A DNA stretch of 9,649 bases from a virus, in UHGV virus genome UHGV-1443331, one strand, 5' to 3'. The position numbers and the translations under genes are program-made. Of this stretch, positions 1,382-6,474 are shown one piece after another (position 1 is the first letter of the stretch; every line of letters starts with the position of its first letter). The notes beneath the pieces were generated by a model. That model did no database searches, had not been told where the DNA came from, and was given only the letters and a program-made list of their open reading frames with translations.

Positions 1382-1615
1382 TCATTGGTCACAGACCGTA
1401 ATCCACTGGCCCAGGACGTCTTTCAGGCAATGTTGGCATAAATCCAGTTTTAAGCGATTACTGTCACCAAAAATTGAACCGTATCCAGCTAAGTGATTAA
1501 CAGACAGAAACTCATTGAACTCAATGTCATCTACCACCGTCTTCGCATGGCGACCACAGCGATCGCAGGTCTTCGCACATAACATTACAGTATCGCTGGA
1601 TGTGAAAAATTGCAT
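1382..1615 (-). CDS. Small Cys4 zinc-ribbon protein (77 aa), function unknown; phage accessory gene
   Basis: ORF with strong Shine-Dalgarno (GAGGAGAT, about 7 nt before the ATG at 1615). Cys pattern C13-x3-C17-x2-C20 ... C61-x2-C64 suggests a zinc ribbon. Same strand as the phage genes, downstream of gIV. Confidence 0.6.
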   Translation of the reverse strand: MQFFTSSDTVMLCAKTCDRCGRHAKTVVDDIEFNEFLSVNHLAGYGSIFGDSNRLKLDLCQHCLKDVLGQWITVCDQ

Positions 1616-1688
1616 TTTATCTCCTCGTAATGCTGCCGCGCCGAATCAGCAATAACGCTAAAAAAACAGAATTGTTCGGCTTGGCCAA

Positions 1689-1729
1689 CCCCGGACACTA
1701 ACAAAAGCAAGTTTTGTCACTGTCCGGGG
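1689..1729 (-). terminator. Long imperfect hairpin 3 nt after the 102-aa ORF stop; possible terminator or RNA structure
   Basis: ccccggaca pairs with tgtccgggg (9 bp), with an inner 6-bp stem acaaaa/ttttgt around a 5-nt loop. On the minus strand a T7 run (complement of 1660..1666) follows about 22 nt downstream, which is not canonical spacing. Confidence 0.35.
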
Positions 1730-1732
1730 TTA

Positions 1733-2041
1733 TCATATAAACCAATAGACCGTCCTTACGCCATTCTGGTTATCAATAACATAGCCGCATTGTTTCCTTA
1801 AAAATTCTTCTGCTAAATCAATGGCTTTTAAAGAAATCTCATAAGAAGGAAGTAAAGTGTATCCTTTCCCTTCACTGGCAGCTGCTTTGATCGCATCCAG
1901 AGTATTATCAATCAGTAACAGAGCAAGTGATGCTTCATTTACCTGAGCCGAAGAACTTCTGGCTGCAAGTGTCATTGTTTTTGCTTCTTCCGCTGTAATC
2001 GTTCGTTCTGCCAGAGCAGATAAAATCCCATAAGAATCCAT
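1733..2041 (-). CDS. Hypothetical protein (102 aa), phage accessory gene downstream of gIV
   Basis: ORF on the same strand as the phage genes; GGGGT Shine-Dalgarno-like motif about 6 nt before the ATG at 2041. No recognisable motif. Confidence 0.5.
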   Translation of the reverse strand: MDSYGILSALAERTITAEEAKTMTLAARSSSAQVNEASLALLLIDNTLDAIKAAASEGKGYTLLPSYEISLKAIDLAEEFLRKQCGYVIDNQNGVRTVYWFI

Positions 2042-2061: not shown

Positions 2062-2121
2062 GTCCATTTGATGGATAGCGAGCAGGGCTCACGCACCTAC
2101 CCGCTATCCATCAAAGTGGAC
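2062..2121 (-). repeat. 19-bp inverted repeat (hairpin with 21-nt loop) spanning the gIV stop codon; candidate packaging signal or structured element
   Basis: gtccatttgatggatagcg (2062..2080) pairs with cgctatccatcaaagtggac (2102..2121) with one bulged base; loop 2081..2101. It sits where Ff phages carry the post-gIV terminator and packaging-signal hairpin. Confidence 0.5.
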
Positions 2122-3376
2122 GAATGATATGTGCTGTAAGCAAAATATACATAATACGCTGTTCATTGCTGTCTGCCTTGCTACTGAAAATCCAGCCTAT
2201 AAGAGGAATTTTACTTATAACTGGAACTGAACGCTCAGCATTGCTAAACGATGAATCGATAAGCCCCCCCAATAACAACGTCTGACCATCCTTAATCTGG
2301 ACTGTCGTCTGAATCTGGCGCTGATTAGTAATAATATCGGATGCCTGATCATCATTGCTGATTGAATCAGCGCGAGTGTCGATAGTCAGAACTAGTTGCC
2401 CGTTACCCATGACAACAGGCGTTACCTTGAGAGAAACGCCAACATCATGACGCTCGATAGTCTGAAACGGATTATTTACCCCGGCAGATTCGCCCGTTAC
2501 CTTTCCGGTGATAAACGGCACATTCTTACCTACGGAAATGTAACCAGTCTGACCAGACTGAGTAAGAATACGCGGCGTTGAAATCACCTTAGAGCGTGAA
2601 TTACTCTGGACAGCACGCAGAGACAGCGCCAACACGTTACCATCAAAAATACCAAAAGAACCGCCCGCCGTAGAAAGAGCGCTACCCAGTGCAGAAGTAT
2701 TAAAGCCCCCCGCAACCTTATGACCGGATGCAGAACCTGCCGCAAACGATAAATCAACGCCATCAGACAAGCTGGTTTCAAACATCAGCGACTGAATGAG
2801 AACCTGATCGCGGGCAACATCCACAGAATTGATAAAATCGGACAGAACCGGCAGCAGCTCGTCAGGCGCAGAAACAATCAGCGAGTTATTGCCTGGATAA
2901 TCCACGACATTACCACCACCATTAGAATCAAGATAAATTTTAATCAGTTGCTGAACATCGGACGATCTAACTTTTGTCAGCTTAAAATTTCTGACCGTAA
3001 GCGCCACAGGTACTGGCTGGTAAGATGGCTCAGAAGGAAAAGTATCATAAGACTGGTTATCAGAATCATCGGAATCCGAAACCATCTGTGAAGGTAATTT
3101 AGACGGCAAAGAGACTACCGCAGGATTGCCAGAAAGCATGACAAAACCGTTAGCATTCAGAACAGACTTAAAGAAATCATCAATATTTGTTGGATTAACA
3201 TCAGCATTAAATACGGTTACGTTTCCTTTAATATCAGGATTAACAATAACAGGCTTGCCAGTTTTTGAAGAATACCACTGAACAAATGAGCGAACAGATG
3301 AATTGTTTAAATTAACAGTTTCAGCAGAAACGCAGAATGAACAGGCAAATAAAAAAGCAACAATAACAGAGCGCAT
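2111..3376 (-). CDS. IV: Filamentous phage pIV, outer-membrane secretin for virion export
   Basis: Signal-peptide-like start MRSVIVAFLFACSFCVSAETVNL with AGGAGT Shine-Dalgarno before the ATG at 3376 (the ORF track's upstream extension to 3469 overlaps gI and lacks a signal peptide). C-terminal secretin-type motif VPVISKIPLIGWIFSS. Last gene in Ff order after gI. Confidence 0.9.
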   Translation of the reverse strand: MRSVIVAFLFACSFCVSAETVNLNNSSVRSFVQWYSSKTGKPVIVNPDIKGNVTVFNADVNPTNIDDFFKSVLNANGFVMLSGNPAVVSLPSKLPSQMVSDSDDSDNQSYDTFPSEPSYQPVPVALTVRNFKLTKVRSSDVQQLIKIYLDSNGGGNVVDYPGNNSLIVSAPDELLPVLSDFINSVDVARDQVLIQSLMFETSLSDGVDLSFAAGSASGHKVAGGFNTSALGSALSTAGGSFGIFDGNVLALSLRAVQSNSRSKVISTPRILTQSGQTGYISVGKNVPFITGKVTGESAGVNNPFQTIERHDVGVSLKVTPVVMGNGQLVLTIDTRADSISNDDQASDIITNQRQIQTTVQIKDGQTLLLGGLIDSSFSNAERSVPVISKIPLIGWIFSSKADSNEQRIMYILLTAHIIRPL

Positions 3377-3383
3377 AATAATA

Positions 3384-3758
3384 TTACTCCTGACAGATAA
3401 CAGTCTGTAAATAACGGCCTTTTCTAATAACAACACGACAGGCATCTTTAATATCAACGGAATAACCATCTTTAATCAAATCAAAATACTGATATTTCGT
3501 ACCTTTTGCATCAACAAACGTAACGGAAACGTCAAAGCCAAGTTGTGAAAAAGAATTAATAGAAAGTCGGGGTAAGTCACTGGACGAATCAGGCGTTACC
3601 GCCCTCGCCTGTTCAGCATAAGCAGATTTAATAGCGGAGATTTCATCAACATTCTTTCCAGACTGGAGCCAGAAACCAAGCGCAAGCCCCAGCGCCAAAA
3701 AAGAAAGCATTAATATAAGACGGTTCGATTTGCGAAAATAAATTTTCGTGAGGCGCAT
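3384..3758 (-). CDS. XI: Candidate pXI: in-frame internal restart within gI giving the C-terminal 124 aa including the TM segment
   Basis: Internal ATG at 3758 (MRLTKIYFRKSNRLILMLSF...) lies just upstream of the TM helix, as for pXI in Ff phages. Inferred by analogy only. Confidence 0.3.
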   Translation of the reverse strand: MRLTKIYFRKSNRLILMLSFLALGLALGFWLQSGKNVDEISAIKSAYAEQARAVTPDSSSDLPRLSINSFSQLGFDVSVTFVDAKGTKYQYFDLIKDGYSVDIKDACRVVIRKGRYLQTVICQE

Positions 3759-4478: not shown

Positions 4479-4820
4479 TTAAATCACCCTGTTTGCATAA
4501 TCAAGAAATTTTTGTTTTAAATCGAAAACAAAAACACTGATACGAGTAACCATAATAACGTTAACACACGCCTGAAAATGGTCAGGCAATACAGACGCCA
4601 TTAAATGGGAGAAATCAGCAGGTAAACCGTTATACATGACCTCAGCAAGGTACTGCATTAAAAGCGTAACAGTTGTTGTAATTAATGCGACCAATGCAAA
4701 GGCGATTAATCCTGTTCTGGTAGCAAGTCGAGCTAAAAAACTCGCCACATAGCCAATAAACAAAGGAACAAGACCAATAAGAAAACGCAACAATGCAGGA
4801 ATACCTAATAATAAAGGCAT
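4479..4820 (-). CDS. VI: Filamentous phage pVI, minor coat protein
   Basis: [17 protein letters not shown]... resembles M13 pVI MPVLLGIPLLLRFLGFL... (recalled), with C-terminal FVFDLKQKFLDY versus FIFDVKQKIVSY. ATG at 4820 overlaps the gIII TGA stop (ATGA junction); the track's GTG at 4823 adds one residue. Confidence 0.9.
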   Translation of the reverse strand: MPLLLGIPALLRFLIGLVPLFIGYVASFLARLATRTGLIAFALVALITTTVTLLMQYLAEVMYNGLPADFSHLMASVLPDHFQACVNVIMVTRISVFVFDLKQKFLDYANRVI

Positions 4821-6070
4821 CACTCACCCCCTTTGCGAAGCAATGAAGTTAAAGAAGTAAAGACATACCAGAACGTAAGGCAATAAAAAACCCATGAAAG
4901 AACATCTTTAATAGTCAGTAATTTATCGCAACCAATATCAATCTGATAAACCTCTCCGGGAAAAATAATAAAATCAGAGCAGCCGTTACCATTGGGTAAA
5001 TTAGGCAGCATAGCACCTTTATTTAAAAATGCTTCCCATAAAGCACCGTGAGAATCCTTTTCAATTCCCAATTCAGAATCAGCCAAAGTAGAAGCGCCAT
5101 CTAATTCAGAGTCGCCCTTTCCATAACGAGAATCACCACCTGAAGGGTCAGCAAAACGGCCAGCCCCCCGCGTAAGATTGTTAATGGAATCGTCAAGACG
5201 ATTTATATTATTCCTAGTTTGTTCATCGGCATTTTTTTTATCATCTGATGAAGTGTCTTTCTCCGTTAATTTATCATGAATATCGCTGGCTATTTTGGGT
5301 GAAGCACCTTCGATAGCAGACTGAATATCACCTTTAGAAAGACTGGAACCACTAAAGCCACCGCCAGAACTACCGCCACCGGACTCACCACCGCCAGAAC
5401 TACCGCCACCGGACTCACCACCGCCAGACTCACCACCGCCAGACTCACCACCACCATTTTGGGGGGTTGAGGGTTTATCAGAGGGGTCAGCTACAGTACC
5501 TGTAGGCTTCCATGTTGCAGCGCAAACAGTACCATCACCCTGACAAACAATGACACCAGTAGCCTCATATTCACAGCCGTTATAGTAGATATAACGACCA
5601 CCATCATATGAATCAACATTATTAAATACACCTTCTTCTGGCGGCTTCGCTTCACAAATTTCTTCTGGTGTCGGGTCAGTAGGTTTTTCATCAGGAACAG
5701 AACGCTGAATATCACCAACAATATAAGCCGTTAAAGACCAATATTTATCCTTCTGCCCTGGTGAATCGCTGTAAGTACAATCACCAGTAAAAACAAGACG
5801 GAATTCAGAATCAGGCCAGATACCCTCATAAGTTGGTTTAACCTGAGTAAATACACTCTGAGCACTGGATTTAGCACCCTGACAAGCGGAGGCCTGCATA
5901 GCAGCATCAATATAGTAAACCGTTGACTTAGAGCCATCCTGATTGGTTATTTGCTTACTTTCAGCGTAGGCAGAGCTTTGATAAGTGGATTTAGTAATGC
6001 TTTCCCATGACTCAGCATGTGAAAAAGGAGAAATGAGGACAGCGGAAAGAATTAATATTTTCCTTTTCAT
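4820..6070 (-). CDS. III: Filamentous phage pIII, adsorption/attachment protein with signal peptide, Gly-rich linker and C-terminal membrane anchor
   Basis: Start at ATG 6070 ([19 protein letters not shown] signal peptide), directly after the post-gVIII terminator; the track's extension to 6214 overlaps gVIII. Linker [13 protein letters not shown]... and C-terminus [36 protein letters not shown] resemble M13 g3p (recalled). Confidence 0.9.
5356..5454 (-). repeat. Perfect tandem DNA repeats encoding the pIII Gly/Ser/Glu linker
   Basis: 30-bp unit cgccagaactaccgccaccggactcaccac at 5361..5390 repeats exactly at 5391..5420; 15-bp unit cgccagactcaccac at 5421..5435 and 5436..5450. Confidence 0.9.
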
Positions 6071-6107: not shown

Positions 6108-6116
6108 GAGTGAAAT

Positions 6117-6359
6117 TCAAACCGCTTTTGAAGAGAATTTTTTGAAAATACGAATGGCAAGCCCAGCGCCAACCACAGCCACAACAACAGGCCATACTTT
6201 ACCAATGAGATCATTTGCCTGAGTCAACAAAGCATCCATTGCCTGACCTGCATAATCAGTACCACCTGTAGCGCCTTCAGCCGCAAAAGAACTTGCAGAA
6301 ACAAAAAGCGCAGTTGAAGCCAGAGCAACTTTATATTTAACAGTAGACAGAATTTTCAT
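6117..6359 (-). CDS. VIII: Filamentous phage pVIII, major coat protein (IKe-like)
   Basis: 80 aa with signal peptide ending SFA/AEG. Mature region [46 protein letters not shown] closely matches IKe g8p (...[41 protein letters not shown], recalled). GGAG Shine-Dalgarno upstream. Confidence 0.95.
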
Positions 6360-6378
6360 AGGAATAACTCCATTAAGG

Positions 6379-6474
6379 TTACATTAATCGGTCAGAAAAT
6401 GATTTAAATGAACCGACCGCATAGAAAAGGGCAAAACCAAAGGTATAAGCCCCGAAGAAATAAACGATATACAT
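6379..6474 (-). CDS. IX: Filamentous phage pIX, minor coat protein (31 aa)
   Basis: Small hydrophobic ORF MYIVYFFGAYTFGFALFYAVGSFKSFSDRLM whose ATG overlaps the gVII stop (TAATG), placed between gVII and gVIII as in Ff. It is the true coding part of the track's 74-aa ORF 6379..6603. Confidence 0.75.
   Translation of the reverse strand: MYIVYFFGAYTFGFALFYAVGSFKSFSDRLM

Follow-up and report, generated by a model that had tools for sequence, protein, structure and literature searches.

The UPΦ viruses, described by Shapiro and Putonti (2020, Virus Evol 6:veaa030, PMC7307601), are Lineavirus-like filamentous phages, akin to IKe and I2-2, that are integrated at dif in tandem copies. In gII and gV they resemble Ypfφ, and these two are the only genes common to UPΦ and Ypfφ; the group is enriched in urinary isolates (PMC7307601). 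Where IKe, I2-2 and M13 have an intergenic region, UPΦ901/UPΦ carry two open reading frames (ORFs) of unknown function, h1 and h2, which were reported to be present in all members, to have no homologs outside UPΦ and to be likely to interact (PMC7307601). Here we examined the corresponding ORFs and the hairpins around them in UHGV virus genome UHGV-1443331, a stretch of 9,649 nucleotides (hereafter the window, in whose coordinates all positions are given unless another record is named) with all phage genes on the minus strand. A preliminary description of positions 1382-2041 had noted two extra same-strand ORFs after gIV and had suggested a toxin-antitoxin-like pair, or a regulator with a small partner. 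Our analysis shows that h1 and h2 are independent cargo genes of a UPΦ prophage and gives no support to a cognate pair. In related phages the two slots that they occupy hold differing genes or none, while a conserved hairpin element and dif stay fixed.

Positions 1382-2041 are 100% identical to E. coli ECONIH2 (NZ_CP014667), whose record holds three copies and which was named as the carrier of a UPΦ tandem triple (CP014667; PMC7307601), so that the two ORFs are h1 (102 amino acids, aa) and h2 (77 aa) of UPΦ, already published as accessory genes of that group. No later functional work on them was found in the literature searched. The window contains a dif-integrated inovirus prophage of ~8.3 kb, because a perfect E. 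coli dif (GGTGCGCATAATGTATATTATGTTAAAT, minus strand, exact match) lies at 1316-1343, at the prophage end beside h2, and a hybrid dif-like site lies at 9603-9630. The dif match was reached by chance in 0 of 200 shuffles, L001 and L006 have this junction too, and the site lies 38 bp beyond the end of the 77-aa ORF. Near-identity to a named UPΦ genome is thus accompanied by dif integration, tandem arrangement (in strain Combat2C1, L001, the repeat unit is 8,374 bp) and the IKe-like order gII-gV-gVII-gVIII-gIII-gVI-gI-gIV followed by two novel ORFs. The h1-h2 segment was found at ≥99% identity in 49 of 5,426 complete E. coli genomes (~1%), usually with the prophage in tandem and with a median of 2 and a maximum of 16 places per positive genome. 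A 7,938-bp Salmonella 'plasmid' (NZ_CP140410) is the circular replicative form, with h2 at 1762-1995 and the hybrid site at 2034-2061 of that record. A CUS-1/Ypfφ prophage carrying the ORFs YPO2280a/YPO2281, assumed at first on the basis of PMC4266046, was rejected in view of PMC7307601 and of the unrelated ORFs in the slots of Ypfφ-like phages.

Both ORFs lie where the preliminary description placed them, on the minus strand at 1733-2041 (h1) and 1382-1615 (h2), separated by a 117-bp spacer (1616-1732) with a long hairpin at 1687-1731, and they are indeed outside the canonical inovirus set, being additional to the Ff/IKe intergenic region as PMC7307601 reports for UPΦ. The strong Shine-Dalgarno described for the second ORF was likewise recovered (GAGGAG at 1621-1626, minus strand, 5 nt upstream of the ATG, read from the sequence), whereas the ribosome site of h1 is merely GGGG at 2048-2051. 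The ratio of nonsynonymous to synonymous substitution rates (dN/dS) was 0.13 for h1 (window versus Salmonella variant) and 0.06 for h2 (window versus a plasmid-like copy), both with dS near saturation, compared with 0.09 for gIV. Furthermore, h1 and h2 match PHROG families of unknown function (E = 3e-68 and 4.5e-46, respectively), and the annotation pipeline PGAP calls both as coding sequences in all genomes. Collectively, these patterns indicate that both ORFs are real genes under purifying selection. In Pfam, NCBIfam, PADLOC and PDB-sequence searches neither protein gave anything above threshold, including any toxin match in the first three. Within UPΦ the two genes are conserved, yet they carry no assigned replication or assembly role and are not universal among related phages.

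Presence and absence in related inoviruses, a comparison that the preliminary description had proposed, separated the two genes in every way. Both occur in the window, L001, L010 and L025-L032. Only h1 is found in Salmonella prophages L006-L008 and the IMG/VR loci L033, L034 and L040, its identity in the Salmonella variant being 61%. Only h2 is found in Klebsiella-type inoviruses (L038, L049, L054) and their plasmid-borne copies (L012, L015), in a Providencia inovirus (L061, L062), and on L002 and many other plasmids. Neither is present in L042, whose gIV is 93% identical to that of the window. The Salmonella UPΦ variants carry in place of h2 an apparently non-coding segment of ~280 bp (segment X; L006 6436-6715), which also follows the h2 homolog in the Klebsiella lineage (L012 7330-7614; L038 6753-6870) at 87-93% identity and which showed no consistent ORF and no Rfam match.

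The two genes also differ in their distribution. A HMMER profile search with h1 against 1.84 billion representative proteins returned seven matches, all from this phage lineage except P0137 (192 aa); this sole non-phage match is a dynamin-middle-domain fragment and was set aside as a chance match. Among 185,579 species-representative genomes h1 occurred in one, a mis-binned metagenome-assembled genome, and in IMG/VR it occurred at ten loci as two allelic types (99-100% and 61% identity). We conclude that h1 is a lineage-restricted orphan, a 102-aa acidic protein (net charge -4) in the upstream cargo slot. Its N-terminal 35 residues diverge fast (dN 0.57) and its core is conserved (dN 0.12). 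An AlphaFold2 model built from four sequences only (pLDDT 70) gave an α-β-α-β-β core, a small predicted fold that is ambiguous and resembles nucleic-acid-binding folds.

By contrast, h2 is not an orphan. A first word-indexed search gave 14 close relatives, and tblastn against plasmids gave 30 records, from Klebsiella, Proteus, Providencia, Ralstonia, Variovorax, Shinella, Paraburkholderia and Polaromonas. A family profile search then returned 1,986 proteins at E ≤ 1e-3, in none of which does a Pfam domain cover the h2 region, so that h2 belongs to a zinc-finger family of ~2,000 members on plasmids and in other inoviruses that has no Pfam model. The family core reads C-D-R-C ... E..E ... G-Y-x-S-x-F-G-D-G ... 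D-L-C-Q-x-C ... L..W. The window protein has cysteines at positions 13, 17, 20, 60, 63 and 75, and the pattern described for it, C13-x3-C17-x2-C20...C60-x2-C63, is present as written; across 76 homologs, however, only C17, C20, C60 and C63 are invariant or nearly so, and C13 and C75 are not conserved. In the AlphaFold2 model the first of the two conserved CxxC motifs lies between two short strands and the second, close to it in the predicted fold, at a helix N-terminus. We therefore predict h2 (net charge -3) to be a four-Cys zinc-finger protein of the zinc knuckle plus helix N-terminus type; fold searches returned generic zinc-finger matches only.

Family members differ in what follows this domain. 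One type, 150-aa proteins, ends in PF09722, the toxin-binding domain of Xre-MbcA/ParS antitoxins; a second, 102-aa proteins of Klebsiella and Salmonella, has a weak CcdA-like tail (E = 0.04); and a third, of 105-292 aa, carries an F-[DK]-P-[DE]-x-H-G-G-E-F-P motif. Separate PF09722 genes adjoin h2-family genes in Pectobacterium, Roseateles and Shinella. Since the C-terminal tails vary, the h2 domain appears to be a module that heads antitoxin- or regulator-like proteins at their N-terminus, and the window h2 is the bare head. PADLOC recognized no h2-family gene context as a system. In Roseateles and Shinella a trio recurs (L063 3139-5195; L017 1711-4736) in which a YggL/PF09722 gene lies divergent to a long h2-family protein, followed by an SNase nuclease with a signal peptide and membrane anchor; the trio sits among CBASS, GmrSD and restriction-modification (RM) genes and is not in PADLOC. 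In the plasmid-like contig L002 the 5' leader of the h2 homolog is identical to that in the window. An attP-hybrid-like site lies there at 2851-2878, ~1 kb upstream of the h2 homolog, and a divergent 122-aa ORF (2946-3314) is weakly homologous (23%, E = 3e-6) to a 137-aa ORF of L012 (5915-6328) that adjoins the Klebsiella plasmid copy of h2.

Turning to the hairpins, the preliminary description contrasted the two extra ORFs with Ff and IKe phages, in which the packaging signal follows gIV directly. The ORFs are extra, but a packaging-signal-type hairpin has kept its place. Hairpin I2 (2067-2115, minus strand; 20-nt arms, 90% complementary) overlaps the gIV stop codon, with the two ORFs coming after it. 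As single-stranded DNA it folds better on the viral strand (-24.5 kcal/mol, z = -8.9) than on the complement (-21.1). By blastn, 75 nt align with IKe 6109-6182 at 72% identity (E = 4e-6), the loop being conserved, and the IKe record annotates 6141-6196 as 'morphogenetic signal'. Because I2 is homologous to this signal, gIV is still directly followed by a predicted packaging signal.

The spacer between h1 and h2 holds a two-hairpin element (1635-1731, minus strand) composed of I1 (1687-1731; 20-nt arms, 90% complementary, 5-nt loop) and a second stem (1675-1685/1635-1645) around a T-rich loop. As single-stranded DNA it folds at -26.7 kcal/mol on the viral strand versus -23.8 on the complement (z = -5.85 against shuffles). 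A degenerate pattern scan of IMG/VR located the element in 22 contigs from at least five inovirus lineages (UPΦ, the Salmonella UPΦ variant, L042, Ypfφ/CUS-like, L044 and Klebsiella-type), always between gIV and dif; the Ypfφ/CUS-like lineage is 85% identical to the window in gII and 93% in gV and only 27% in gIV. I1 also precedes h2 homologs on plasmid-like contigs, with compensatory changes. Across an 11-sequence alignment with 31 pairs in two helices, pairing was kept in 88% of cells versus 31-51% when the partners were slid, and 10 pairs had changed on both sides, a number reached in 0 of 500 shuffles. One G·U(T) wobble never varies and restricts the pairing of the element to the sense, or viral, strand. 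Since L038 and L042 have separate packaging-signal-type hairpins of their own at the gIV stop, the shared element is a second, distinct cis-element. Rfam holds no family for the hairpins. As identities for I1, an integron attC, an IS200/IS605 end and an Frpo-type single-stranded DNA promoter were set aside: the terminal motif is at odds with attC, the stem has no room for both a -35 and a -10 box, and the coding sense is that of the viral strand.

In phage orientation the layout therefore runs gIV, packaging-signal hairpin, slot A, two-hairpin element, slot B and attP/dif. Slot A is taken by h1 in UPΦ and by an unrelated basic protein of 82 aa in both L042 and the Ypfφ-like phages; the Providencia phage has a 128-aa ORF there, and L038 has nothing. 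Slot B holds h2, other ORFs of 58-145 aa, an addiction-antidote-like ORF (PF21716, E = 1.6e-5) or non-coding X. On the Klebsiella IncF plasmid NZ_CP132652, L012 6442-8317 contains a secretin fragment (PF00263, E = 2e-5), the element, the h2 homolog and X, together with a cer/dif-like Xer site (8290-8317). This plasmid-like locus is probably what remains of an inovirus that had integrated at the Xer site of a plasmid.

We propose the following model. A scan for promoters and terminators gave no signals between gIV, h1 and h2, and neither hairpin is followed by a T-tract, so the simplest model is read-through from the morphogenesis operon: h1 and h2 would be transcribed from the gI-gIV operon and each translated from its own Shine-Dalgarno, strong in the case of h2. 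The two-hairpin element would fold in the packaged viral strand and serve as a complementary-strand origin, as in IKe and Ff, and together with dif it may provide homologous flanks for the exchange of slot-B cassettes between co-resident inoviruses. Less firmly, h2 may be a small binding module dependent on zinc, which as a regulator or an adaptor would bind nucleic acid or a partner protein, because the same domain heads antitoxin- and regulator-like proteins with PF09722, CcdA-like and HGGEFP tails; its action would most plausibly be on the host or on competing elements rather than on virion assembly. In turn, h1 could be an acidic α/β winged-helix-like factor with a fast-evolving N-terminus that modulates the host or other elements. 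Taken as a whole, this explanation of the UPΦ accessory end, its cargo genes and its hairpin elements has in our estimate a probability of about 0.6. Its anatomy and the independence of the cargo are held with considerably greater confidence, and the molecular roles proposed for h1 and h2 by analogy are tentative and less likely than not. A joint extension appears unlikely in its entirety: that h2 is the stand-alone binding head of a new antitoxin- or regulator-like class acting as an orphan regulator of superinfection, defense or lysogeny, and that the element is both a shared minus origin and a two-slot recombination boundary across which UPΦ, Ypfφ/CUS-like and Klebsiella-type phages trade cargo.

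Several observations weigh against this model. No RES, CcdB or other toxin gene was found beside the h2-PF09722 fusions or the homologs with a CcdA-like tail, and the window h2 has no tail at all, which leaves the analogy with an antitoxin head indirect. The net acidity of both proteins is atypical for DNA-binding regulators, and h2 stands directly before dif in three divergent inovirus lineages, which makes a phage-specific role possible. As for the element, blastn detected no similarity to the IKe minus-origin hairpins; the element also occurs on plasmid-like contigs; and it could equally act at the level of RNA.

These points lead to the alternative explanations. There is practically no chance that the ORFs arose fortuitously in a non-coding intergenic region: IKe and M13 are intergenic at this place and neither ORF has a Pfam domain, but this reading is refuted by the conservation pattern, namely the low dN/dS of both genes at saturating dS and the ~2,000 h2 homologs with conserved Cys ligands, to which the PHROG matches and uniform PGAP calls are added. 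More has been said for a cognate interacting pair, whether toxin-antitoxin-like or a regulator with its partner. The genes are adjacent, small and on the same strand; they are co-present in all 229 UPΦ genomes of PMC7307601 and in each of the 49 E. coli genomes identified in this study; h2-family domains elsewhere are fused to antitoxin-type tails; and the variable module of the same phage can hold a Doc-family toxin. Yet the obligate co-occurrence and tight coupling of a type II system are lacking, since all four combinations of presence and absence exist and the genes, rather than overlapping, are parted by a 117-bp spacer that is no operon linker but is occupied by the conserved two-hairpin element. 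Homologs of h2 lie on more than 25 plasmids, never with an h1 neighbor, purifying selection persists on h1 in the Salmonella variant although h2 is missing there, and neither protein matches a toxin, antitoxin or defense family. We consequently regard a cognate pair as very unlikely, and the toxin-antitoxin suggestion of the preliminary description as not borne out; h1 and h2 are better studied separately.

For the two-hairpin element, the reading as a minus-strand origin, reached by analogy, seems to us to have somewhat less than an even chance. It is supported by two adjacent viral-strand hairpins downstream of the packaging signal, a position equivalent to that of the two minus-strand-origin stem-loops of IKe (6333-6438). 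A less probable but real alternative is an RNA-level element that would attenuate or terminate transcription after slot A, or would serve in the 5' untranslated region (5'-UTR) of the slot-B gene as a stabilizer or translational regulator. The G·U wobbles suit RNA equally well, the start codon in slot B is invariably 10-30 nt beyond the second stem, the second loop has a T7 run, and on the plasmid-like contigs L002-L005, which have a divergent upstream gene, h2 is still accompanied by the element. However, the element is kept where slot B is non-coding (L006, L040) and whatever genes flank it, no terminator was called at either stem, and its position equals that of the IKe hairpins. Regarding the cargo itself, we consider it quite unlikely that h2, possibly with h1, is a life-cycle factor at attP/dif that acts in XerCD integration, tandem-templated replication or lysogeny control, analogous to TLCΦ XafT, rather than dispensable cargo. 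Homologs of h2 are last or next-to-last before dif in UPΦ, Klebsiella-type and Providencia-type phages, h2 ends 38 bp from attP in the circular genome, and small Proteus and Providencia plasmids with cer-like Xer sites have h2 homologs in their backbone; but Salmonella UPΦ variants and Ypfφ-like phages reside at dif without h2, most family members are carried by large plasmids or chromosomal islands and have no Xer site in their vicinity, h2 shows no similarity to DUF3653/XafT or any recombination family, and its recurrence before dif is explicable by cassette exchange between conserved flanks. Improbable to a similar degree are anti-defense or orphan-antitoxin morons, that is, small acidic inhibitors of a host or plasmid toxin or immune system, or agents of competitor exclusion, that would help the phage to become established. 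The small size and acidity of both proteins, the ctxAB-equivalent cargo position, the PF09722 fusions and neighbors, the CcdA-like tail and the antidote-like alternative slot-B cargo are in keeping with this, as are an h2 relative that shares a plasmid-like contig with genes for YubE, a methylase and Plasmid_stab_B and others next to SIR2 or in Gabija, CBASS, GmrSD and RM islands. Nevertheless, no PADLOC model or known anti-defense fold was matched, no conserved target gene accompanies the family, and an island context is generic for accessory genes.

Other features of the prophage can be summarized briefly. The last morphogenesis gene, the gIV secretin, lies at 2111-3376 (minus strand) and is identified by the RefSeq annotation of the identical E. 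coli locus, its longest ORF extending to 3469; a 93%-identical homolog contains the Pfam domains Secretin, Secretin_N and N0, and IKe gIV is ~79% identical in nucleotides over one segment. In gIII (~5290-5460) a 30-bp indel separates the window from Combat2C1 within the Gly-rich repeat linker, described as a hypervariable region in PMC7307601. The prophage end opposite h2 is an imperfect palindrome of ~100 bp (9534-9633, minus strand; located by regular expression, blastn self-complementarity and comparison with NZ_CP140410). It contains the hybrid dif-like site (GGTGCGCATAATGTACGACTCGTTATGT), in which the XerC arm is perfect and the XerD arm degenerate, and looks like a folded attP of the CTXΦ type; in the circular phage h2 ends 38 bp before this attP.

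The reverse-oriented module beside attP is wholly different among near-identical phages (window 8366-9530, L001 19266-20471, L010 2138-2872). In the window it holds a 91-aa ORF and a 234-aa protein with a hydrophobic C-terminal half (8829-9533); in Combat2C1 an 'ECs_2282 family putative zinc-binding protein' together with a hydrophobic protein of 140 aa and an ORF of 159 aa; and in the Salmonella replicative form a Doc/Fic-family toxin with no annotated antitoxin. The chromosomal flank (72-1128) has a truncated SDR oxidoreductase gene and a LysR gene without its C-terminus, both RefSeq pseudogenes. In some sequences the gII N-terminus is fused in frame to the C-terminal part of h1 (P0019) or of h2 (P0014, 70 member sequences), fusions that indicate recurrent prophage deletion derivatives without any structural genes. 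In the Providencia inovirus L061 a large, near-perfect dif-like palindrome (~3590-3660) stands between the slot-A ORF and the h2 homolog, and h2 is followed by a DUF2158 gene and the host dif (4548-4575); this could be a second small Xer-dependent element in tandem.

The importance of these findings is moderate to low unless a host-modulating role emerges. Nonetheless, h2 gives access to a large and as yet unnamed family of zinc-finger proteins carried by plasmids and phages, and the hairpins are phage cis-elements delimiting slots whose cargo can be exchanged and which the plague-associated Ypfφ/CUS lineage also has.

In comparison with known systems, the window agrees with UPΦ901/UPΦ (PMC7307601) in its genes, its phage type and its tandem residence at dif. 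It differs from the published account in that h2 has ~2,000 relatives outside UPΦ, that close variants lack h2 or both genes so that the two assort independently, and that the hairpin elements were not described there. As in the IKe/Ff intergenic region, a packaging hairpin lies at the gIV stop with two further viral-strand hairpins downstream, but UPΦ has h1 between the packaging signal and the hairpin pair and h2 after the pair; the viral-strand origin is not in this region, because gII and gV are of the Ypfφ type. The cargo position before a dif-type site is the one that holds ctxAB in CTXΦ and YPO2280a/YPO2281 in Ypfφ/CUS-1 (Derbise & Carniel 2014, PMC4266046), likewise XerCD-dependent inoviruses with cargo after the last assembly or secretion gene, and Ypfφ-like contigs have the same two-hairpin element between their two ORFs. 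In contrast to this shared position, h1 and h2 show no sequence similarity to the cargo of those phages: tblastn gave no match between them and the slot ORFs of Ypfφ-like contigs, the putative counterparts of YPO2280a/YPO2281. Since they are sited where CTXΦ carries cholera toxin, h1 and h2 are obvious candidates for a phage effect on the host. With type II antitoxins (Xre-MbcA/ParS, PF09722; CcdA, PF07362) the h2 family shares an N-terminal domain placed before a PF09722 or CcdA-like C-terminus, and with the zinc-binding antitoxin MqsA, h2 shares the predicted character of a small zinc-binding module. Beyond the published description, this study adds that h1 is an orphan, that h2 belongs to a large family with modular fusions, that the two genes assort independently, that I2 is homologous to the IKe packaging signal and that a conserved two-hairpin element bounds two slots across several inovirus lineages.

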